Assembly (NCBI GenBank): GCA_036788695.1
Contig: DAIQMY010000001.1
Span: 236,134 to 300,133, forward strand
Direction: 5' to 3'
From: Candidatus Levyibacteriota bacterium
GTDB taxonomy: Bacteria; Patescibacteriota; Microgenomatia; Levybacterales; GWA1-39-11
DNA: 64,000 nucleotides
The position numbers and the translations under genes are program-made. Shown piece after piece: positions 2,482 to 46,233 of the stretch. How positions within the stretch are numbered: position 1 is the first letter of the stretch; each line of letters begins with the position of its first letter. The notes beneath the pieces are model-generated. The model saw only the letters and a program-made list of their open reading frames with translations, made no database searches and had not been told where the DNA came from.

Positions 2482-3018
2482 ATGGATGACAAAACACAAA
2501 AACCAAAAGTTGAAGAAAATCTGGATGAAATAGAAGAGCTAGACGATGAATTAGATGAAGAAGAGGAGAAGTTGGCATCCGAGCAAAGAGAGCAGGCGGG
2601 ACTGAAGGAGAGAATTACAAGCCTTGAAGACCAGTTGAAGCGGGCAGTTGCGGATTATAGAAATCTTGAAAATAGAGTTCGGGAGGAGCGTTTAGAATTT
2701 GTTAAGTACGCAAACAGATCACTTATAGAGCAGTTGCTCCCAGCATTTGACACGCTTCTACTTGCTGAGAAATACACAAAAGACGAGAATTTAAAAATTA
2801 CGGCTAAGCATATATTGGAGGTATTAAAAGTTGCGGGAATTGAGAAGGTTGAAACAATTGGTAAGAAGTATGATCCTATCACCATGGAGGCGGTAGAAGT
2901 AATAGAGGGAGATAAGGAGAAGGTGCTTGAAGAGACACAGCCTGGATTTACGATATATGGGAAAATTATAAGACCCGCAAGAGTTAAAGTTGGGGGAAAA
3001 GATACGGTAAAAGAGTAG
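2482..3018 (+). CDS. grpE: Nucleotide exchange factor GrpE
   Basis: An acidic N-terminus and coiled coil (LEDQLKRAVADYRNLENRVREER), followed by a GrpE C-terminal beta domain (KKYDPITMEAVEV...GFTIYGKIIRPARVKV). Confidence 0.85.
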   Translation: MDDKTQKPKVEENLDEIEELDDELDEEEEKLASEQREQAGLKERITSLEDQLKRAVADYRNLENRVREERLEFVKYANRSLIEQLLPAFDTLLLAEKYTKDENLKITAKHILEVLKVAGIEKVETIGKKYDPITMEAVEVIEGDKEKVLEETQPGFTIYGKIIRPARVKVGGKDTVKE

Positions 3019-5131: not shown

Positions 5132-5821
5132 CTAGTCTGTGTATGCAATTTTTTTGGGGGTAAACACTTTTTTTATTGATTCAACAACCCCTTTATGAGC
5201 AAGCTTATTATATAGCTGACGTGCTTCTCTTTCTGACGCATGATAGTCAAAGATACGACTTGTTTTTTTTGTAACACCTAACCCCAGATCGCCCAGAATT
5301 ACGTTCGCATTTCCCTCAGAGTCGACAATAAAAAAATAGGTATCTTCGTATATATTAAAGCCTGCTCTATCTGCTTTTTGTGAAATTTCAATAAGCTGCT
5401 TCTTAACATTTTGTTTATTTTTAATAACCTCTTCAAAATCTACTTTTTTTTCAAATATCTCATTCATAGAAAATACTAATTTCTTATTTCCCTCTGTCAG
5501 ATCTGTTACGATTATGCTTCTTGTGCCCTCAATTTGCCTAACGGTTAGAGGAACAGGAAGGTCAGCTTGTTTCAATTCCAGATAATGTTTTACATAATCG
5601 TCTGAAACAAAAAACTCCCATGCTCGTGCATATTTAGGATCTCTTTCAGCAAATTTTCCCGCATTTCTTTCTCTCCCATTTTTTATGAGTACTAATTCTT
5701 GGATTATATATCTTGCTTCGTTGCCACTTCCTATATAAGTACCGTTTCCCCTAAGGAATACTTCTGACTTACGTCCAGTAAGTGGCGAGATGAGTGTTTT
5801 TCTTTCGTGATTTTCTGGCAT
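5132..5821 (-). CDS. Hypothetical protein with a minimal protein-kinase-like motif order (Bud32/RIO/KdkA-like?)
   Basis: In kinase order it has a Gly-rich IGSGNEARY, then VLIK (VAIK-like Lys), then IVDSEGNANVIL (catalytic-loop-like D...N), then GDLGLG (DFG-like), at ~229 aa. There is no confident family assignment. Confidence 0.3.
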   Translation of the reverse strand: MPENHERKTLISPLTGRKSEVFLRGNGTYIGSGNEARYIIQELVLIKNGRERNAGKFAERDPKYARAWEFFVSDDYVKHYLELKQADLPVPLTVRQIEGTRSIIVTDLTEGNKKLVFSMNEIFEKKVDFEEVIKNKQNVKKQLIEISQKADRAGFNIYEDTYFFIVDSEGNANVILGDLGLGVTKKTSRIFDYHASEREARQLYNKLAHKGVVESIKKVFTPKKIAYTD

Positions 5822-11079: not shown

Positions 11080-12834
11080 ATGCAAAGCATACTTCATGTG
11101 TTAAGGCGTATTGATACTCGTTTTTTTCTGTTGCCATTTTTATTATTTGCATTTGGAGCAATTGGATACGTAGCTGTCCAGGGGATATTTTTTCAAAATG
11201 ATAAAATATTTCCTCAAGGCGTACGGTATATTCCTGATCAAATAATAGTTAAATATAAAATTGGTCAATCTCCAGATGAACTTCAAAACGCGGGTAAGAT
11301 AGAAAATAGAAAAGTTCTCTTATCAGCATTATCAAATGTGGGTGTTGTCTCACAAAAGAGGCTATATGTTTCAGAAAATTCTTTGCTTGAAAATTATTAT
11401 GTATTAACGCTCAAGCCTGGTTTTACTGTTCCAGACGCATATAATAAGATCACAAAGATACCCGAAATAGAAAATGCTGCACCTGACTATATATTAAAAA
11501 TACAAGAGATGCCTAATGATCCATACTACCCATCTATGTGGAATCTTTCTAAGATTAAAGCAGAATTAGCGTGGGATTCTGTGCATGTAGGCGGGAGAGT
11601 CACAATTGCAGTTATTGATACGGGAGTTGATTATCAGCATGAGGATTTAAAAGATATCGTTATAAAAGGAAAGAATTTTATTTTAAATGATAATAATCCA
11701 ATGGATGACCAGGGGCATGGAACGCATGTTGCAGGAATAGCTGCCGCAGTTACAAATAATGGTATTGGGATAAGTGGTGCTACATGGGGAGCTAAAATAT
11801 TGGCTATTAAAGCCTGTGATAAAAATGGGGATTGTAGTACGGCAAATGTTTCAAGAGCTATTCAGTACGCTGTAGATAATAATGCAAAAATTATAAATGT
11901 CAGTATTGCTGGGAGCGGTTCGTGTAATGGAACATATACAGATGTATTAAGATATGCGGCAAGAAAAGGCGCGATAGTAGTTGTTGCTGCAGGAAATGGA
12001 AATAATGGGGATGGAATAGGTGTAAATGTAGAATCCCAAATACCCGCATCGTGTGAAGGTTCTATTGCGGTAGGTTCAATAACAGCAGATGGTAAAAGGT
12101 CAGGTTTTTCTAATTTTGGATCCAAAGTTGAAGTTTCAGCTCCGGGTGGTGTTGGTCCTTGTACTATGGAGAGTTGTATTATTTCAACCAGTATTAATAA
12201 TTCGTACTCACTTCGTTCTGGAACATCTATGGCAGCCCCTCAGGTGAGTGCTGTCGCCGCTCTCCTTTTAGCTTCTGATAAAAATTTGTCTATGTCAAAA
12301 ATTAAATCCTGTATTTTAAGTGGAGGAGATAACATTCAAACAGATAAAAGTATCGGTCTTCTTCTGAACGCCCAAAATTCCCTAAAGATTTGTACTAAAA
12401 TTGAGGCAACTCCTACTCCAAAAATGAGTAAAAATAATTCGTCTATTGCGGGTACTGTATTTATTGACGAAAATAAGAATAAAAAGCTTGACTCAATAGA
12501 AAAAACATTATCGTCTGCCCAGATAATCTTGTCCGGCTTAAGTAATGATAGTGTTCTTAGTAACTCAAAAGGTAAATATTTATTTTTGGGGTTACCGGGT
12601 GGTTTATACACAATATCTGCAACCCTAAATGGGCAAAGCGTAATTGTACCTATAGACGTATCTGTTGCATCAGATAATTCGGTTCAACTTAATATACCTA
12701 TATCTTCGGAGATGGTGATTATTACGCCAACACCTTCATTCGCAAAGCAAAAAACTGCGTCTTATTGTTTCATAGACCCCGAGTGTTTAAAGAGTAGGAA
12801 CTCAGTTCAAATATGTTCGTTTCGGTGTGAGTAA
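11080..12834 (+). CDS. Subtilisin-like serine protease (peptidase S8), N-terminal TM/signal anchor
   Basis: Catalytic triad contexts VTIAVIDTGVD (Asp), HGTHVAGIAAA (His) and GTSMAAPQVSAVAALL (Ser), with a hydrophobic N-terminus and a C-terminal beta-rich extension. Confidence 0.8.
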   Translation: MQSILHVLRRIDTRFFLLPFLLFAFGAIGYVAVQGIFFQNDKIFPQGVRYIPDQIIVKYKIGQSPDELQNAGKIENRKVLLSALSNVGVVSQKRLYVSENSLLENYYVLTLKPGFTVPDAYNKITKIPEIENAAPDYILKIQEMPNDPYYPSMWNLSKIKAELAWDSVHVGGRVTIAVIDTGVDYQHEDLKDIVIKGKNFILNDNNPMDDQGHGTHVAGIAAAVTNNGIGISGATWGAKILAIKACDKNGDCSTANVSRAIQYAVDNNAKIINVSIAGSGSCNGTYTDVLRYAARKGAIVVVAAGNGNNGDGIGVNVESQIPASCEGSIAVGSITADGKRSGFSNFGSKVEVSAPGGVGPCTMESCIISTSINNSYSLRSGTSMAAPQVSAVAALLLASDKNLSMSKIKSCILSGGDNIQTDKSIGLLLNAQNSLKICTKIEATPTPKMSKNNSSIAGTVFIDENKNKKLDSIEKTLSSAQIILSGLSNDSVLSNSKGKYLFLGLPGGLYTISATLNGQSVIVPIDVSVASDNSVQLNIPISSEMVIITPTPSFAKQKTASYCFIDPECLKSRNSVQICSFRCE

Positions 12835-17540: not shown

Positions 17541-19613
17541 TTATAATAAGAAAGACTTTAATAGTCGTAGTCTGGTATAGAATGGTAGAGCTTTTATAAA
17601 AATGGCTCTCACAAGAGCCCTTCGTTTAGTAGCTCTTATTCCAATAAATATAGCTAGGAAAGTCATTATTAGATAATATACCCATAAATCATTTCTATAG
17701 TTATCCCCTTTTTCCATATATGCTCCAGCAATTTTAATTTCTTTCTTGCTACCCGTCTTGTTTCCGGTTTTTGTAGTTGCAGCCAATACTTTTCCATTTC
17801 CCTTAGAAGATACCATAAAATAACTTTCCGCCGTGGCTTCAACTACTGTATCTTTCCCTGTAGTGCCAGTTACATAGGAGAGCGCAGTATAATGTCCCGC
17901 AGGTGCATTATTTGTAAGAACTAACCCGGTTGTTAAGCGTTTTGTTTTTTGAGCTTCGATATCTTCAAGATCAAATGATGGTCCCCCCATAAATTCTCCA
18001 TCTTTGTAGAGCCCTATTAACAATTTTGCTCCATATATTTTTCCTGTTCCGTTATTTTTTGTGTCTACAAAAAATGTTACAGTATCTCCAGGATTTACAA
18101 ACTCTCCCACATTATTTTTATTTGTAACCGTAAGTTTTCCTCCGGATTCTGGATCCTTTATTTTTTCTTGACTATCACCATTTGATATTTGTTCTAATGA
18201 ATGTTCTTCTTGTGTTACTTCTGTAATAAATTTACTTGCGCCACCGATACTTCCTGACCAGTTTCCAAAAACGTTAATAAAAGCAAAAAAACCATTTGTT
18301 TTGAAAAAATTTGAGTTGATAAAGTTAATCAGTGAAACTGCAGAGTATGCATTTCCGGTTTGTATAAGTCCATCATTTCCATGAATAATGTTGGTCCCGG
18401 TATCTGCCTTTGTTTTAACGGTGTTTTTTACAATAGCTGTGTTCTCAGTTATAAGAGCAGTATCACAATCACAGTCATTATTATTATTTGAGAGGCTTAA
18501 GGTGTCTCCTCCATTTTGAGGTTCAAAACTATCCCACCCCAAAAAATTACCAGTCCATTTTCCTAGAACGTTTATAAATAGCTTTTGGAATAGTGCTCCG
18601 ACAGCATTTGTATTTACCATATCTACAATGTTTATAATGCTGTGTGAGGTGCCGGTCTTGATCATTGAAGAAGAGCTAGCTATATCTATGCTGTTGTTCC
18701 CGGTATTCGTATCAGCTGTTACATCATTTTCTATAAGTGCAATATTTTTCATGGTTGCAGATGAACCACAGGATGCACATTCTGTTTCTTCATGAAAGTC
18801 AGGAAGAATTATATTGCCTGAAAAGTCTCCAAATATATTAATGGTGACTATATGGATAACAGAGTCGACAACAGTGAAATTTGCTTTATTTACGAGTGAG
18901 ACTACAGAGTATGCATCCCCTGTTTTGATAAGGGCGTTTTCTCCTTCAGCTATTTCATTTCTTCCTGTAGACGCGGTGGCAAATACATCATTGTCAAGAT
19001 ACACATAGTTTTTTGCATCAGTTACAGAAACGTTAACAATCGGGTTTGTATTTTTATCCTGAGAGATGATCGTGTAGGCAAGATTAAATGGTGTAGACAA
19101 ATCTATACTTTCTGCATCGTCTACAAAGATATTAATAGTTTGATTTATCACCTGTGAATTAATTGAATTTGTGTTTACTGTGTTGTCTACAGACACGAGC
19201 GTTGTAGAATCGCCCGTTGTAATAGAAGAGCTTGAGTTCTGCTGTGCAGGTGAGGAGCTCTGAGGAGTTTCGTGAGAGTTACTTGAAGGTAAGTTAGATG
19301 AAGCCTCTTCAGCGTCCGGAGGAGTAAGCTCAGCAGAGGTGGTTGAAATATTTTCTCCTGTGTTAGATGCTCCCGCAGTTGTATCATGCGCTTCAGTTGT
19401 ATTTGCTTGTGTTGTGTTTTCTGCGGCTTCACTTGGAGATGGAGTGGGGGTAGTAGTTTGGGTTGGTGTTGGATCAGCTTGCTCTATTACAGTAGGCGTA
19501 GGGGTATCAGTTGGTGTTTCATCAAGCGCGTAGACTGTGAATGGCGAGATAGAATTGACTCCAATAACAAGAAATATAATAAAAAGTGCGAAATATCTTT
19601 TGAATCCTGCCAT
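17541..19613 (-). CDS. Cell-surface protein: signal peptide, T/P-rich linker, three internal ~65-aa repeats each preceded by a C-x-C motif, C-terminal TM anchor
   Basis: Has a signal (FALFIIFLVIGVNSISPFTVYA) and a PT-rich linker. The repeats centre on IKTGDAYSVVSLVNKAN / IKTGTSHSIINIVDMVN / IQTGNAYSAVSLINFIN, and each ends in INxFGxWSGN. CASCGSS and DCDCDT precede repeats 2 and 3. The C-terminus has a TM (LWVYYLIMTFLAIFIGI) and a basic tail. Confidence 0.5.
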   Translation of the reverse strand: MAGFKRYFALFIIFLVIGVNSISPFTVYALDETPTDTPTPTVIEQADPTPTQTTTPTPSPSEAAENTTQANTTEAHDTTAGASNTGENISTTSAELTPPDAEEASSNLPSSNSHETPQSSSPAQQNSSSSITTGDSTTLVSVDNTVNTNSINSQVINQTINIFVDDAESIDLSTPFNLAYTIISQDKNTNPIVNVSVTDAKNYVYLDNDVFATASTGRNEIAEGENALIKTGDAYSVVSLVNKANFTVVDSVIHIVTINIFGDFSGNIILPDFHEETECASCGSSATMKNIALIENDVTADTNTGNNSIDIASSSSMIKTGTSHSIINIVDMVNTNAVGALFQKLFINVLGKWTGNFLGWDSFEPQNGGDTLSLSNNNNDCDCDTALITENTAIVKNTVKTKADTGTNIIHGNDGLIQTGNAYSAVSLINFINSNFFKTNGFFAFINVFGNWSGSIGGASKFITEVTQEEHSLEQISNGDSQEKIKDPESGGKLTVTNKNNVGEFVNPGDTVTFFVDTKNNGTGKIYGAKLLIGLYKDGEFMGGPSFDLEDIEAQKTKRLTTGLVLTNNAPAGHYTALSYVTGTTGKDTVVEATAESYFMVSSKGNGKVLAATTKTGNKTGSKKEIKIAGAYMEKGDNYRNDLWVYYLIMTFLAIFIGIRATKRRALVRAIFIKALPFYTRLRLLKSFLL

Positions 19614-19703: not shown

Positions 19704-20183
19704 CTATTCAACAACGTTTGTGTTAACAACGTTATTTACTGCTACTCCTGTTGAGGATGCACCTGTCATTGAAAGTTGTGCACCAAGAAGCGCAACGTTT
19801 GCGTTCTTTCCTGAGTTAGAAGTGCCTTTAACGTTTGTTACAACAAAAGCAGAATTTGCTTGTGTTGTATTTCCGTTTGCTACTCCAACGTTCAATTTAG
19901 GGCTAACACATCCACAACTTGTTTTGTTGTAGTTTACCTGTTGAGCTACACCTACGCTTGTAGTTGCTGCTCCGGTTGATGACCCTTGGATTCCTACTGC
20001 TGCTGCGTTAAGATTTTTCCCAGTGTTTGAGACTCCCTTAACGTTTGTAACAACAACTGCATTATTTGTTTGTGTTGTGTTTCCATTTAACGCACCAATA
20101 TTTACTGCAGCAAATGTTGGGGTTGCAGCGCCTAGCATTACTGCTCCAGCTGCTGCTGATACGACTAATTTTTTAAAATTCAT
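19704..20183 (-). CDS. Small secreted protein made of two tandem ~65-aa N/T/V-rich repeats (same module as the downstream large surface protein)
   Basis: Taking the real start as MNFKKLVV, it has a perfect SD (AAGGAGGTG) 9 nt upstream. The signal peptide ends ...TPTFA|A. The repeats are NIGALNGNTTQTNNAVVVTNVKGVSNTGKNLNAA and NVGVANGNTTQANSAFVVTNVKGTSNSGKNANVA, separated by SCGCVSP. Confidence 0.5.
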   Translation of the reverse strand: MNFKKLVVSAAAGAVMLGAATPTFAAVNIGALNGNTTQTNNAVVVTNVKGVSNTGKNLNAAAVGIQGSSTGAATTSVGVAQQVNYNKTSCGCVSPKLNVGVANGNTTQANSAFVVTNVKGTSNSGKNANVALLGAQLSMTGASSTGVAVNNVVNTNVVE

Positions 20184-20217
20184 ATATTTATTCACCTCCT
20201 TTTTTTTAATATTACGA

Positions 20218-20260
20218 AAAAAAATCGGCTGTGTTCCCATGGGAAGTAAAACCGATTTTA
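20218..20260 (-). terminator. Rho-independent-terminator-like hairpin + T8 tract (minus strand), lying in front of the repeat-protein SD
   Basis: On the minus strand it reads AAAATCGG-TTTTACTTCCCATGGGAACACAG-CCGATTTTTTTT. The loop contains a CCCATGGG palindrome. It lies downstream of the DUF2292 gene and 15 nt upstream of the SD of the next gene. Confidence 0.4.
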
Positions 20261-20684: not shown

Positions 20685-21089
20685 TTATTTAAAAAATGAT
20701 TTAAGCATAATCTCAATATTTAACATGAATTGTTCTATGCCAGTTTTTTTTTCGTGTTTATTTTTTTTATTTTTATGAGTTGCCGTTGGTTTTTTTACTG
20801 TTTGAGTGCTTGTAATACTTGGAGGCTGAATAGTATTTCTGATTTGAGAAGATGTAGTAGATGAGTCTATCTTAATTTCTACCTTGCCATCCTTAAAGCT
20901 ATCTATAACCTTTTTTCCCCCGTTTGCCTCTATTGATATATGCGTTTCAGCTTTCCCCCCTGAAGTGTTGGTTTCAACGTATACAGATGTATTTGCGTCA
21001 CCTGTTGTGAAAGACTCAGCATAAGTATTTGAGAAAGAAAGAGAAAGAAGGACAAGGGGAAGTAGAAATAATATTTGTTTTTTATTCAT
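20685..21089 (-). CDS. Small secreted hypothetical protein (signal peptide, basic C-terminus)
   Basis: Starts with the signal peptide MNKKQILFLLPLVLLSLSFSNTYA|ESF. No domain is recognised. Confidence 0.4.
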   Translation of the reverse strand: MNKKQILFLLPLVLLSLSFSNTYAESFTTGDANTSVYVETNTSGGKAETHISIEANGGKKVIDSFKDGKVEIKIDSSTTSSQIRNTIQPPSITSTQTVKKPTATHKNKKNKHEKKTGIEQFMLNIEIMLKSFFK

Positions 21090-21165: not shown

Positions 21166-22206
21166 TTATCGTATGAACATTCCATCTCCAAACGAAAAAA
21201 ATCGAAATGTTTTCTCTTGTGCAACTTTATACAATCTCAATAATTGTTTCCTTCCGGTAAATGCTGCAACTAGCATAAGAAGGCTTGATTTTGGCACGTG
21301 AAAATTTGTGATGACTTGATCTGTGCATTTTAATTTTGTTTTTGCAGTTATAAATAGATTTGTTTTTCCACTCAGTTTTTGAACAATTCCATGAGAATCG
21401 GAGGAAGATTCGAGTGCCCTTACTACAGTTGTACCTATTGCGACTATGCTCCTTCCTTCTTTTCTTGCATTATTTAGAAGTTTTGCTGTAGCGGTATCAA
21501 TTTCATAAAATTCTTCATGTAATTTTTGTAGTTTATATTGCTCTTCACGTAAGGGAGCAAATGTTCCTAGGTTTACATGTAAAGTAATAAAGCATATTAA
21601 GTGCCCTTGTTTTTGTAGTTTTTTCATAAGGTGTCTTGTGAAGTGGAGGGATGCGGTAGGAGCAGCTACTGATCCTTCGTTTTTTGCAAAAACAGTCTGG
21701 TATTCTTCTCTTAATTTTTTCCCCTTTATAGTTGTATGTTTTATATATGGAGGCAGGGGTGTTATTCCAATTTCTTCAAACACTCGCAAGTAACTATTTA
21801 CAGGAAAGGATGGTTTTAGGGAATATTCTTTGTCCTGCTTTAATATAACTTTGAAGAAATATTCCCCTGCAGTTATTATTAATCCTTTTTCTAATTTTTT
21901 ATTTGCCCAGAAAATTAATTTTTCACCCTCTTTTCGTATGAATAGTAGGTCTACCTTCCCTCCCGTTGGTTTTTGTCCAATTACACGAGCAGGGATGACT
22001 TTTGTATTATTAAAAACTAAAACTGAATTAGGAGATAAGTAGTTGCCTAAATTTTTAAAAGTATCAACTGAAATATTTTTTGATTTTCTATCATAAACTA
22101 ACAGTTTTGCGCTGTCTCGTGGGTGTACCGGATTTTGGGCTATAAAAGATTCAGGTAATTTGTAATCATACTCTAATAGGATTTTTTCAAAATCAGATTT
22201 TACCAT
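21166..22206 (-). CDS. queA: S-adenosylmethionine:tRNA ribosyltransferase-isomerase
   Basis: The N-terminus (DFEKILLEYDYKLPESFIAQNPVHPRDSAKLLVY) and the overall 346-aa architecture match QueA. It overlaps tgt by 14 nt. Confidence 0.85.
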   Translation of the reverse strand: MVKSDFEKILLEYDYKLPESFIAQNPVHPRDSAKLLVYDRKSKNISVDTFKNLGNYLSPNSVLVFNNTKVIPARVIGQKPTGGKVDLLFIRKEGEKLIFWANKKLEKGLIITAGEYFFKVILKQDKEYSLKPSFPVNSYLRVFEEIGITPLPPYIKHTTIKGKKLREEYQTVFAKNEGSVAAPTASLHFTRHLMKKLQKQGHLICFITLHVNLGTFAPLREEQYKLQKLHEEFYEIDTATAKLLNNARKEGRSIVAIGTTVVRALESSSDSHGIVQKLSGKTNLFITAKTKLKCTDQVITNFHVPKSSLLMLVAAFTGRKQLLRLYKVAQEKTFRFFSFGDGMFIR

Positions 22207-23329
22207 TTTTTATTTCCTCTCTGATTTTTATTATTTGAGATTGGAAAAAATATAAATTGTGATACGAAAAGAGAGTAAGTGGAGTTATCTCATGTGCCTT
22301 TAGTAGATGCGCCAAATAAGAGCGTTTATATTGCTGACATACAAAACAAGGACAGGTTTTATCAAGCGGTTCATTATCTTTCAACATCTCACTTTTCCTC
22401 ATATTAATTCTTCCAGTTGATGTAAATATTATTCCACGTCTTGCGTAATGAGTTGGTGCTATGCAGTCAAAGGTGTCAATTCCTGCTTTTATAATAGGAA
22501 TAAAATCATCGGGATGCCCTATTCCTAGTAGATGTCTTGGTTTTTCATCTGGAATATTGGGAATTACCCATGATAACATTTCTGAAAGGGTATCTTTGTT
22601 ATCTCCAAATTCTCCTCCTATAGCTATCCCATTAAAGTCCATTTTCCCAATGGTTAGCGCACTATCTATTCGTAAATCCTTAAATTTTCCACCTTGAACA
22701 ATACCATACATGGCTTGATTTGATTTTTTAATATCTAGACAAATCTTTGCCCATCTGTGGGTTTTTTCCATAGACTTTTTTGTATATTCATAATTTGCGA
22801 TAGGACTTGTGCACTCATCAAATGCGTTTATTATGTCAGCCCCTAAATCCTCCTGAATCTTAACCGATTCGTTCGGTCCTATAAATATTTTTTTTCCGTC
22901 AATTGGAGATCGGAATTCAACTCCATCTTCCGTAATTTTTACTTTTTGTGGTTGTTGACCCTCAGAAATTGAGAGTGAAGACTTTTCTTTTAAAATTTTG
23001 CCTACCCCATGATCCATCCCGAATCCGAGCGAGAATACCTGAAAACCACCAGAATCAGTCATGATAGGGCGATCCCAGTTAGAAAATGTGTGTAATCCTC
23101 CTGCTTTCTTAATTATTTTTTCTCCGGGTTTAAGGTGTAGGTGAAATGTATTTTCAATTAACACTTGTGTCCTAGTTTCCTTTACCTGATCCCATGTTAA
23201 GGCTTTCATCGTTGCCTGAGTTGCAACGCCAACGAGCGTTGGTGTCTCAATTTCTCCATGGGGAGTTTTAAGTATTCCTGCTCGGGCATGGGAACTACTT
23301 GATTTTTTCACAATATCAAAAGAAATCAT
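22193..23329 (-). CDS. tgt: Queuine tRNA-ribosyltransferase
   Basis: HARAGILKTPHGEIETPTLVGV, DSGGFQVFSL and the zinc site CPCFVCQQY...H match Tgt. Confidence 0.9.
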   Translation of the reverse strand: MISFDIVKKSSSSHARAGILKTPHGEIETPTLVGVATQATMKALTWDQVKETRTQVLIENTFHLHLKPGEKIIKKAGGLHTFSNWDRPIMTDSGGFQVFSLGFGMDHGVGKILKEKSSLSISEGQQPQKVKITEDGVEFRSPIDGKKIFIGPNESVKIQEDLGADIINAFDECTSPIANYEYTKKSMEKTHRWAKICLDIKKSNQAMYGIVQGGKFKDLRIDSALTIGKMDFNGIAIGGEFGDNKDTLSEMLSWVIPNIPDEKPRHLLGIGHPDDFIPIIKAGIDTFDCIAPTHYARRGIIFTSTGRINMRKSEMLKDNEPLDKTCPCFVCQQYKRSYLAHLLKAHEITPLTLFSYHNLYFFQSQIIKIREEIKNGKI

Positions 23330-23336
23330 GAAGCAA

Positions 23337-23438
23337 TTATACTCGAGCTACGTCGAGAGTACAAACCAGTTTATACTCGAGCTACGTCGAGAGTACAAAC
23401 CAGTTTATACGTAAGCTACGTCGAGAGTACAAACCTGA
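23337..23438. repeat. 34-bp tandem direct repeat x3 (two perfect copies + one variant), directly upstream of tgt start
   Basis: The unit TTATACTCGAGCTACGTCGAGAGTACAAACCAGT occurs at 23337-23370 and 23371-23404. The third copy, TTATACGTAAGCTACGTCGAGAGTACAAACCTGA, is at 23405-23438. There are no spacers between units. Confidence 0.85.
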
Positions 23439-23467
23439 TATATAAGCATCAGCTACCGAACAGAAGT

Positions 23468-24265
23468 TTATAGTTCTAGTGTATTTTGTGCATGGGTGGA
23501 TGGTTCTTTTTTGCTTTTCTTTGTTTGATTACGAACAAAGTCGCAATAATCACATCCGAATGTAAAATCAGGAGTTGTGTCAGAAGTAAGCACTATTCGA
23601 ATTTTTTGAAGAGCTGAAGATATCCATGAAGTGTCCCCTGTATACGAAATAATAGATAAATCAAATTCTAATTTTCCGTCAAACCTTGCTCTATTCCGTC
23701 TTGCATTTGCGAATACAAAATATCCTGTATGTGATACTTTATATCCTGAGTTTCTAAATATCCATTGATAAATTTCCATTTGGCGCTTGTAACTTTCTTT
23801 ATATTCATCATTCAGGTTGATGGTTCGATCTGTGCTTGTTGCTTTATAGTCAACAATGAGTAATTCTTCTTTTTTGTTTTGCCATACATCATCAATTGCT
23901 CCAGCCACAATGAAATTAGTATCACGTTCGTGATAGCTTTTCCCCTTAAAATTTTCTCGCCATCTATCAATTTCAGGATGCTTAAATGGAACTGCGTCTA
24001 TTTTATATTTTTTCATAAGTTCGTGTGTTTCGCTGTTTGCCCGAAGAAGGTCAAACTCTTTTTTTAAAAGCGTGTCAACAGTATTGTTTAACGTAAAAGT
24101 AGGCATGCTAGGTCGTGCTATCCCCAACCTTCTGTCTAGGTAAAAACATCGGGGGCATTGCATAAATAAGTCAATTTTAGATCGAGAGATCTTATATGGT
24201 TCAGTAGACTTGGGATTAAAAAGTGGACTAAATCTATACTCATAAGAAGAAAGAGTTTTATACAT
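23468..24265 (-). CDS. PD-(D/E)XK nuclease, Cas4/RecB-like with four Cys (likely Fe-S)
   Basis: Has D...IVDYK (D/ExK) and QMEIYQW (QxxxY) motifs. Cys pairs are CPRC near the N-terminus and CDYC near the C-terminus. Length is 265 aa. Confidence 0.55.
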   Translation of the reverse strand: MYKTLSSYEYRFSPLFNPKSTEPYKISRSKIDLFMQCPRCFYLDRRLGIARPSMPTFTLNNTVDTLLKKEFDLLRANSETHELMKKYKIDAVPFKHPEIDRWRENFKGKSYHERDTNFIVAGAIDDVWQNKKEELLIVDYKATSTDRTINLNDEYKESYKRQMEIYQWIFRNSGYKVSHTGYFVFANARRNRARFDGKLEFDLSIISYTGDTSWISSALQKIRIVLTSDTTPDFTFGCDYCDFVRNQTKKSKKEPSTHAQNTLEL

Positions 24266-24318: not shown

Positions 24319-24555
24319 TCAGATTTTTGGTTTTTCTCCGGTGAAGTAGCAAATAAATGATAAAATTACAGTCGTAATTAAAAACTCAGGAGTAAATGCT
24401 ATAAGCGTATCTGAAATTGAATTGGATGAGGAATCAATTCTTAAAAAATCCCATATTAAGAAACCAACATATAAAGTAACTATTCCCCATCCTTGCCATG
24501 TTGCAGGTCTCCAACCTATTCCATGACGCAAGGAAGCAAACCACCGTTTTTTCAT
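24319..24555 (-). CDS. Small 2-TM membrane protein, hypothetical
   Basis: 78 aa with two hydrophobic helices, divergent from the AlkA-like gene. Confidence 0.3.
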   Translation of the reverse strand: MKKRWFASLRHGIGWRPATWQGWGIVTLYVGFLIWDFLRIDSSSNSISDTLIAFTPEFLITTVILSFICYFTGEKPKI

Positions 24556-45066: not shown

Positions 45067-46233
45067 ATGATTGATAAAGGGTATCCCCTTAACTTAAGTG
45101 GATTAAATACGAATAACTCAAATAGTTCCAATTCAGCACAGGATTCAATTCCATCACAAAATAATCCCGGTTCATTGGATAGCTTTCCTCAAATAACAAA
45201 ACTTGAGCAATTGGTTTTAAAAGCTTCTCTTCCTGTGGATTTGCATGAAAAATCTATGGGAATGATTCAGCGTTTAAAACTTATTAAGCATGAGTCGAGT
45301 TTCTTTATGGAACTTGATCAGATTGGACGATACATAGAATGGATAACTGCTCTTCCTTGGAATTTCGAAACAAAAGATATCCTTGACTTGAATCATGCAA
45401 GACAGGTCTTGGAAAAGAATCATTATGGTTTGCTTCAGGTGAAAGAACAGATTCTCCAATATCTATCCGTAATGATTATTAAAGCTTCTCAGGGAAGCTC
45501 AAAGGACCATTTTTCAAGAGCGCCAATTATTTCTCTTGTTGGACTTGCGGGAGTAGGAAAAACAACAATTGCGTACTCTATAGCCGAAGCACTAGGAAGA
45601 CGCATTGAGCGTATCCCATTTGGAGGGATGGGGGGTGCAGCTACTCTAAGAGGTCAGTCTCGATCTTCACCGGATGCTGAACCAGGAGCAGTAATGAAGG
45701 CGTTACGTCGTTCAGGGACAAACAATCCTGTTATTTTACTGGATGAGATAGACAGAGTATCTGAGGCAGCAAGAGGAGATATAATGGGGGTGTTGGTTGA
45801 ATTATTAGATCCAGAGCAAAATAGAGCATTTACTGATCACTACATAGATTACCCCTTTAATTTAGGTAACGTTTTATTTGTTGCAACGAGTAATAATACA
45901 AAAGATATCTCTACTGCAGTTTTGGATAGACTTGAAGTGATTCAAATGCCTTCTTATGCGGACGCAGAAAAAATTACGATTGCGAAGAACTATTTACTGC
46001 CTAAAATTCTTGCTGAATCAGGATTTACAGCAAATTCGGTGATAGTAACTGACGCGGTTTGGGCAGAAATTGTGCGACCCCTCGGATATGATCCGGGAAT
46101 TCGTTCTCTTGCTCGTGCGGTTCAGGATATGGTAAGAAAAGTTGCACTGTTTCAATTAGATGGAAAGCTGCCTAAAGGGCAACCGTTTAATTTAACAGAT
46201 CAGAATCTACGTCAATTTATCCCTCAATGGTAG
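45067..46233 (+). CDS. Lon-like AAA+ ATPase module without LAN or peptidase domains
   Basis: Aligns with the Lon pre-AAA helix and AAA+ module, including ALPWNF...HYGLLQVKEQILQYLSV, GLAGVGKTTIAYSIAEALGRRIERIPFGGMGGAATLRGQSRS, VILLDEIDRVSEAARGDIMGVLVELLDPEQNRAFTDHY and LFVATSNN. The ORF ends right after the AAA+ lid, and the next gene is RNase J. Confidence 0.65.
   Translation: MIDKGYPLNLSGLNTNNSNSSNSAQDSIPSQNNPGSLDSFPQITKLEQLVLKASLPVDLHEKSMGMIQRLKLIKHESSFFMELDQIGRYIEWITALPWNFETKDILDLNHARQVLEKNHYGLLQVKEQILQYLSVMIIKASQGSSKDHFSRAPIISLVGLAGVGKTTIAYSIAEALGRRIERIPFGGMGGAATLRGQSRSSPDAEPGAVMKALRRSGTNNPVILLDEIDRVSEAARGDIMGVLVELLDPEQNRAFTDHYIDYPFNLGNVLFVATSNNTKDISTAVLDRLEVIQMPSYADAEKITIAKNYLLPKILAESGFTANSVIVTDAVWAEIVRPLGYDPGIRSLARAVQDMVRKVALFQLDGKLPKGQPFNLTDQNLRQFIPQW

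Follow-up and report, generated by a model that had tools for sequence, protein, structure and literature searches.

The window analysed here, a 64-kb stretch of DNA (64,000 nucleotides) with a GC content of ~37%, carries two genes of queuosine tRNA modification on its minus strand. The first, tgt (22193-23329), encodes a 378-amino-acid tRNA-guanine transglycosylase (Pfam PF01702, E=1.5e-127), and the second, queA (21166-22206), encodes a protein of 346 amino acids (Pfam E=1.4e-110), which bears out the initial annotation's assignment of tgt followed by queA. In E. coli the order is the reverse, queA-tgt. The two genes overlap by 14 nt and a Shine-Dalgarno-like AGAGAGGA precedes queA within the end of tgt, so queA is probably co-transcribed with tgt. 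The ATG of tgt (23327-23329, minus strand) is the first start codon of its open reading frame and has no Shine-Dalgarno sequence upstream. Upstream, on the same strand, lies a PD-(D/E)XK nuclease-family gene (23468-24265, minus strand; Pfam), whose stop codon is separated from the tgt ATG by an intergenic region of 138 nt (23330-23467). In a consensus scan, nothing resembling a terminator turned up from the nuclease gene to the repeat described below, and the 64-kb window as a whole contains no tRNA genes (ARAGORN) and no Rfam families at the gathering threshold. Four minus-strand open reading frames near the locus, at 17541-19613, 19704-20240, 20685-21089 and 24319-24555 (690, 178, 134 and 78 amino acids), have no Pfam match.

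Most of the region between the nuclease gene and tgt is taken up by a tandem repeat. Tandem Repeats Finder places it at 23337-23435 (period 34, 2.9 copies, 95% matches, score 177) and gives it by far the highest score of any tandem repeat in the 64 kb; a second repeat search saw it as well, confirming the threefold 34-bp repeat reported upstream of tgt in the initial annotation. Three units lie head to tail and in register over ~102 nt (23337-23438) and end 7 nt before the tgt ATG. The interval originally given for the repeat, 23330-23467, is thus the whole intergenic region, of which the repeat proper fills only these ~102 nt. On the coding strand the array reads TCAGGTTTGTACTCTCGACGTAGCTTACGTATAA, ACTGGTTTGTACTCTCGACGTAGCTCGAGTATAA, ACTGGTTTGTACTCTCGACGTAGCTCGAGTATAA, then TTGCTTC-ATG. 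The proximal unit (copy 3; 23337-23370, minus strand) completes a promoter-like site together with base 23336. The middle unit (copy 2; 23371-23404, minus strand) is identical to it and carries the -10-like hexamer TATAAA (23375-23370), and the distal unit (copy 1; 23405-23438, minus strand) carries the same hexamer at 23409-23404. Duplication had been called perfect, which is true of copies 2 and 3; copy 1 is only 85% identical to them. Its differences fall at five positions, three of them adjacent (TTACG vs TCGAG), and the change from TCGAG to TTACG removes the CTCGAG site from this unit. The same substitutions form a perfect 5-bp inverted repeat, ACGTA-GCT-TACGT. Such a cluster, perfecting a palindrome, may be the signature of a template-switch mutation; alternatively, it may be due to chance.

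No further copy of the unit with up to 3 mismatches occurs elsewhere in the 64-kb window (100 shuffles were likewise without a match), and the pattern TTTGTACTCTC-N7-GCTCGAGTATAA found no match in metagenome contigs. An origin in a mobile element or phage was rejected, as there was neither a viral-contig match nor another copy in the window. The units abut, with a start-to-start spacing equal to the unit length, and so lack the unique spacers of a CRISPR array. The sole small open reading frame in the repeat, 28 codons in antisense, is a product of the repeat itself and was dismissed as a functional candidate. A fourth, decayed copy was sought in the stretch that separates copy 1 from the stop codon of the nuclease gene and was rejected, the alignment being no better than that of shuffles (p=0.27); local alignment against shuffles found none in the sister species either.

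Repeats invite the suspicion that an assembler created them or set their copy number, and short-read de Bruijn assemblies do break at this site, which makes the count of identical units dependent on spanning reads. We nevertheless regard such an artefact as highly improbable. In a de Bruijn analysis at k=31, the window sequence yields exactly two branch nodes, whereas a hypothetical two-unit allele (the diverged copy plus one unit) yields zero branches at this k. Two Logan contigs from the same strain (L082 and L001; SRR2107211), 100% identical to the window, break inside the repeat exactly as predicted: L082 ends at the in-branch node and L001 begins at the out-branch node (30-mers). For these break points to arise, the diverged unit must be followed downstream by no fewer than two identical units in tandem and, because the breaks come from an independent assembly and match the predicted nodes, the array is not the artefact of a single assembler. 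A two-unit structure is also the same in five independent assemblies of a sister species. The exact count of three, not more, rests on the window assembly.

Copy number among related strains, a comparison proposed in the initial annotation, varies from one (~97% DNA identity to the window) through two (~85%) to three (the window itself). A single unit is present in L164, L165 and L166, which come from three sequencing runs and, at ~97% DNA identity to the window over 4 kb, belong to the same species; the Tgt of the one-unit strains is carried on 11 contigs. All three read ...TATATATCAGGTTTGTACTCTCGACGTAGCTCGAGTATAATTGCTTC-ATG, with an intergenic region of 70 nt, and, as no graph break interrupts their contigs at the site, the single copy is genuine. 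Two units, with the same 34-bp period and register as those of the window, are found in 5 of 5 assemblies of the sister species (L002, L163, L167, L168 and L169). The locus is therefore a variable-number tandem repeat, and the species can do without the extra units, as the conspecific one-unit strains show. The repeat was not found in more distant relatives, including L003 (82-85% DNA identity). L003, the next-closest species, does carry, at 2950-3000, a perfect 6-bp inverted repeat (AAGTTT-agcctc-AAACTT) directly upstream of a TGaTATAAT box, and this region has the short words ACAAG, CTCGA and AGTTT in common with the units of the window and L002.

What all alleles keep, whether of one, two or three units, is the proximal end, TATAAT-TGCTTC-ATG. 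In the window the gene-adjacent copy comprises TTGTAC (23364-23359), 17 nt, a perfect -10 hexamer TATAAT (23341-23336), TGCTTC (23335-23330) and the ATG (23329-23327). This combination, TTGTAC-N17-TATAAT-N6-ATG, is unique in the window, where no matches are expected. The -35-like hexamer lies within the GTTTGTACTCTC block and agrees with TTGACA at only 3 of 6 positions, which is why a consensus sigma-70 scan missed the proximal site; the scan called none of the three units. No Shine-Dalgarno sequence is present at tgt: TGCTTC precedes the ATG, and GGAG, GAGG and AGGA are all absent from -17 to -5. In sigma-70-type promoters, transcription starts ~7 nt after the -10 hexamer. Because the hexamer here ends 6 nt upstream of the gene, transcription of tgt would start on the A of the ATG.

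Comparison with relatives argues for the same layout. The position of the tgt ATG is common to all close relatives, which all start ATGATT, and a -10 box ends 5-8 nt before it in 16 of 17 relatives whose Tgt is at least 50% identical (the 16 being L002-L009, L018, L083, L084, L086, L087, L090, L163 and L164). These represent 14 distinct upstream sequences, as L084 repeats L018 and L163 nearly repeats L002. Among them are nine boxes of the form TGnTAnAAT, three GAGTATAAT, TGtTATACA in L018 and L084, and TAAAAT in L087. The upstream DNA of these relatives is otherwise unalignable, and even the upstream gene differs. L085 (TATAAG, ~10 nt away) does not fit the layout, nor do the more distant L088 and L089. 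The TGn extension present in nine other relatives is missing from the promoters of the window and the sister species. Taken together, geometry and conservation make a leaderless tgt start well supported at the sequence level, in agreement with the initial annotation, which had also read every unit as TTGTAC-N17-TATAA(A/T); that pattern is indeed present, with TATAAT in the proximal unit and TATAAA in both upstream units.

The arrangement at tgt has counterparts across the window. Scoring 47 long open reading frames for a TAnnnT box with at least 5 of 6 matches to TATAAT, we found such a box 5-9 nt upstream of 13 gene starts, compared with 51 of 2000 control ATGs (2.6%; Fisher p=4.8e-10). Shine-Dalgarno 4-mers showed no such enrichment (5 of 47 starts vs 8.3% of control ATGs). 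Examples of start-adjacent -10 boxes, often TGnTAnAAT, precede the genes at 5132-5821 (minus strand), 11080-12834 (plus strand), 23468-24265 (minus strand) and 45067-46233 (plus strand). This Levybacteria genome appears to depend to a large extent on initiation that is leaderless or non-Shine-Dalgarno. A comparable pattern defines the group C genomes of GeneMarkS-2, among them Mycobacterium, Streptomyces and Deinococcus, in which a Pribnow box lies 6-8 nt from first-in-operon starts and internal genes have ribosome-binding sites (PMC6028130). As in that group, the tgt -10 hexamer sits 6 nt before an ATG without a Shine-Dalgarno sequence, in a layout repeated at 13 of 47 starts, and the internal gene queA bears a Shine-Dalgarno-like motif, as the dual start model of group C would have it (PMC6028130). 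The present case differs from group C (PMC6028130) in that the host belongs to the CPR (Levybacteria), most promoters are of the extended -10 type (TGn) and the leaderless starts are predicted. The literature searched gave no description of a leaderless-initiation habit in CPR/Patescibacteria. If the pattern is genome-wide, Levybacteria would join Actinobacteria and Deinococcus among the heavy users of leaderless mRNA, with relevance to the calling of gene starts in CPR genomes and to translation on the reduced CPR ribosomes.

Whether the upstream units also fire is a separate matter. The most critical bases of a -10 hexamer are the A at position 2 and the last T. At each upstream junction the base is A, which gives TATAAA in place of TATAAT, and the upstream units are for this reason probably weak promoters at best. 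When each unit is examined for a 16-18-nt spacer together with A2 and T6 in the -10 hexamer, the proximal unit has this combination and the two upstream units lack it. An alternative hexamer in the upstream units, TAAACT (23373-23368 in the middle unit), has a 19-nt spacer. Transcripts from the upstream units would have leaders of ~30 and ~65 nt that lack a Shine-Dalgarno sequence and have hairpin potential.

These observations bear directly on the claim, made in the initial annotation, of three tandem promoters. According to that account all three units are active, with starts spaced 34 nt apart (one leaderless and two leadered), and copy number sets tgt-queA expression, so that the array would be nature's equivalent of the tandem promoter clusters built by engineering. 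Several features speak for it. Every unit has an invariant -35 block and, at a fixed spacing of 17 nt, most of the -10 block; the shifted TAAACT of the upstream units has the required A and T at positions 2 and 6; in the sister species, two homogenised units persist in five assemblies; and synthetic tandem core-tac promoters give a stepwise rise in transcription with up to five copies (PMC3293061). However, the -10 hexamers of the upstream units are missing their last T, the shifted alternative has a 19-nt spacer, the leaders would be without a Shine-Dalgarno sequence and include a hairpin-prone segment, and one unit suffices in conspecific strains. We therefore consider activity of all three units unlikely. 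Of the three promoters proposed, the proximal TTGTAC-17-TATAAT stands; the upstream pair is undercut both by its TATAAA hexamers and by the single-unit state of strains of the same species.

Divergence between the units shows which parts of the sequence have been held constant. In an alignment of eight units, the blocks GTTTGTACTCTC and GCT..GTATAA are invariant in both species, as one would expect were it the -35 and -10 elements, with the spacing between them, that matter. All differences fall either in the central part of the spacer (CGACGTAG vs CTGC[T/G]TTG) or in the linker of 5 nt (ACTGG, ACAAG or TCAGG). The sister-species unit reads CTCTCTGC[T/G]TTGCTCGAG, and the lone T/G difference between strains of that species occurs in each strain in the two units alike. 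Within a genome the units are identical (apart from the distal unit of the window, at 85%) but only 82% identical between the two species. Uniformity within genomes and difference between them points to ongoing expansion, contraction or conversion, and at the level of sequence the units are evolving in concert, whether through conversion or through repeated cycles of contraction and renewed expansion. The period, the position of the junction and the similarity of the linkers are shared by both species, which favours a single duplication in their ancestor, from which the single-unit allele would later have arisen by contraction; the order of these events is inferred.

The same invariant blocks admit another reading. 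They coincide with an 8/9 inverted repeat (TTTGTACTC / GAGTATAAA), so their conservation could reflect a protein-binding site, instead of or besides promoter hexamers. In its full form this becomes an operator array, with one site for a dimeric regulator per unit, half-sites TTTGTACTC and GAGTATAAA 12 bp apart and overlapping the -35 and -10 elements; added units would then be added binding sites and would alter repression of tgt-queA. In keeping with this, TACTC-N12-GAGTA occurs in the window only in these units (2 matches vs 0.02 expected), and the junctions between units are near-palindromic too. Much else counts against it. The GAGTA arm is lost from the distal unit of the window, no such inverted-repeat site lies upstream of tgt in other relatives, and no repressor gene is evident beside the locus, the nearest DNA-binding gene (Trans_reg_C) being 3 kb away. 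Nor did the folding of single units (z = -0.3, -1.85 and +0.76) show anything unusual against shuffles. A regulon for the half-site TTTRTACTC was looked for and rejected, as the only other matches in the 64 kb lie antisense within a carbamoyltransferase gene. As for the near-palindrome CTCGAG/CGTCGAG, from which the initial annotation had suggested an operator array, the palindrome CTCGA-N6-TCGAG is not conserved, being absent from the sister-species units and from the distal unit of the window, and that suggestion is weakened accordingly. An operator array built on TTTGTACTC and GAGTATAAA seems to us very unlikely.

A reading at the RNA level supposes that transcription reaches the array from the nuclease gene. 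Read-through would place the quasi-palindromic units in a transcript, where the long hairpin that they form could serve as a signal for processing, stability or attenuation located between the nuclease gene and tgt; one version of this proposal would be a riboswitch related to queuosine. PreQ1-I aptamers are ~34 nt long, and the 34-nt unit in a queuosine context made this class worth considering. The lack of a terminator-like site between the nuclease gene and tgt in the consensus scan is compatible with read-through, and the predicted fold of the intergenic region joined to the first 30 nt of tgt has an energy of -46 kcal/mol (z = -3.1) and pairs adjacent units in a helix of 20 bp. That helix, however, exists only in multi-unit alleles and therefore has no conserved function. 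Single units fold no better than shuffles, and a conserved hairpin within the unit was rejected on this ground, the z-score of the region coming from pairing between units. A U-tract for termination is absent. Searches of 23200-23600 with Rfam at E up to 10 returned no riboswitch or credible family, only three unrelated matches at chance level; no covariance model of the preQ1-I, -II or -III riboswitches matched, and the whole window is without an Rfam family at the gathering threshold. An RNA element is accordingly an explanation to which we give very little credence.

The reading that we hold to be probable is a variable-number duplication of the tgt-queA core promoter, in which the proximal copy works and drives a leaderless message while the upstream copies are passengers. 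The 34-bp unit would be a complete tgt-queA core promoter, from -35 block to -10 block, and replication slippage or unequal recombination would have copied it head to tail into a variable-number tandem repeat. RNA polymerase would use the gene-adjacent copy and start at, or within 1-2 bases of, the A of the ATG. The product would be a leaderless tgt-queA mRNA, as would be usual for tgt and for many first-in-operon genes in this Levybacteria lineage. The upstream copies would be polymorphic passengers, at best weak extra promoters, in an array that would continue to expand, contract and homogenise. The repeat and its anatomy, the variation in copy number, the concerted evolution of the units, the conservation of the -35 and -10 blocks and both the conservation and the frequency of the -10 box near the start are observed here, while the point where transcription starts, the weakness of the copies farther upstream and slippage as the mechanism are inferred.

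Passenger status for the upstream copies could be challenged from the sister species. A two-unit state in 5 of 5 of its assemblies could mean that the extra copy is maintained by selection. This fixation lends some weight to an additive effect of promoter dosage, for which engineered tandem promoters offer an analogy (PMC3293061). The array could then be a tuning device in which each unit adds transcription or a regulator site and so adjusts queuosine tRNA modification through tgt-queA. Such a role strikes us as quite unlikely; under it, populations could adjust tgt-queA by expansion and contraction with no dedicated regulator, selection would be maintaining the two homogenised units of the sister species, and the locus would be a natural, evolvable 'promoter-dosage' system in a reduced-genome CPR bacterium, mixing leaderless and leadered messages.

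Under the favoured reading, a duplicated core promoter with upstream passengers, the locus resembles repeats known from promoter regions of other organisms. MIRU/VNTR loci lie in promoters of Mycobacterium tuberculosis, and 7-bp repeats lie upstream of hmw1A/hmw2A in Haemophilus influenzae. The array shares with such promoter-region VNTRs a head-to-tail repeat before a gene, a strain-variable count (1, 2 or 3) and homogenised units. It differs from them in that the unit is exactly one core promoter in register, not a short repeat that changes a spacer or an unrelated minisatellite, and, since the working spacing from -10 to start codon is constant, on/off phase variation is not expected here. 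TR34 of Aspergillus fumigatus cyp51A likewise duplicates 34 bp of a promoter in tandem; it varies from strain to strain, and its copy number is linked to expression. It serves as an analogy only, being eukaryotic and duplicating transcription-factor sites, whereas the array here duplicates a core promoter. The closest engineered parallel is MCPtac, a series of tandem core-promoter clusters that raise transcription stepwise in E. coli (PMC3293061). Both place several core promoters head to tail before one gene, but the present array is natural and its upstream copies have a defective -10 (TATAAA); in addition, its proximal copy is predicted to be leaderless, while the upstream copies would give a leadered message, unlike in MCPtac (PMC3293061).

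Leaderless genes and promoter-region tandem repeats are both known kinds, so the locus calls for no new regulatory device or mechanism; it is an ordinary repeat polymorphism on a probably leaderless promoter, and by itself the repeat is a small strain-variable duplication. The combination of the two, along with the CPR host, makes for a tidy new example. As a natural case it is clean: what has been duplicated is neither more nor less than one core promoter, the one-, two- and three-unit states exist in sequenced populations, and these three allelic states make the effect of promoter copy number measurable.

The Tgt of the window is recorded as a protein of a Candidatus Levybacteria (CPR) MAG, and the genomes that come closest are MAGs of Levyibacteriota and other CPR bacteria. 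Among the relatives compared, L002 and L004-L009 carry the public title 'uncultured Gammaproteobacteria bacterium', although their Tgt is 68-96% identical to that of the Levybacteria window. With Tgt so close to the Levybacteria protein, the Gammaproteobacteria label on these CPR MAGs looks wrong.
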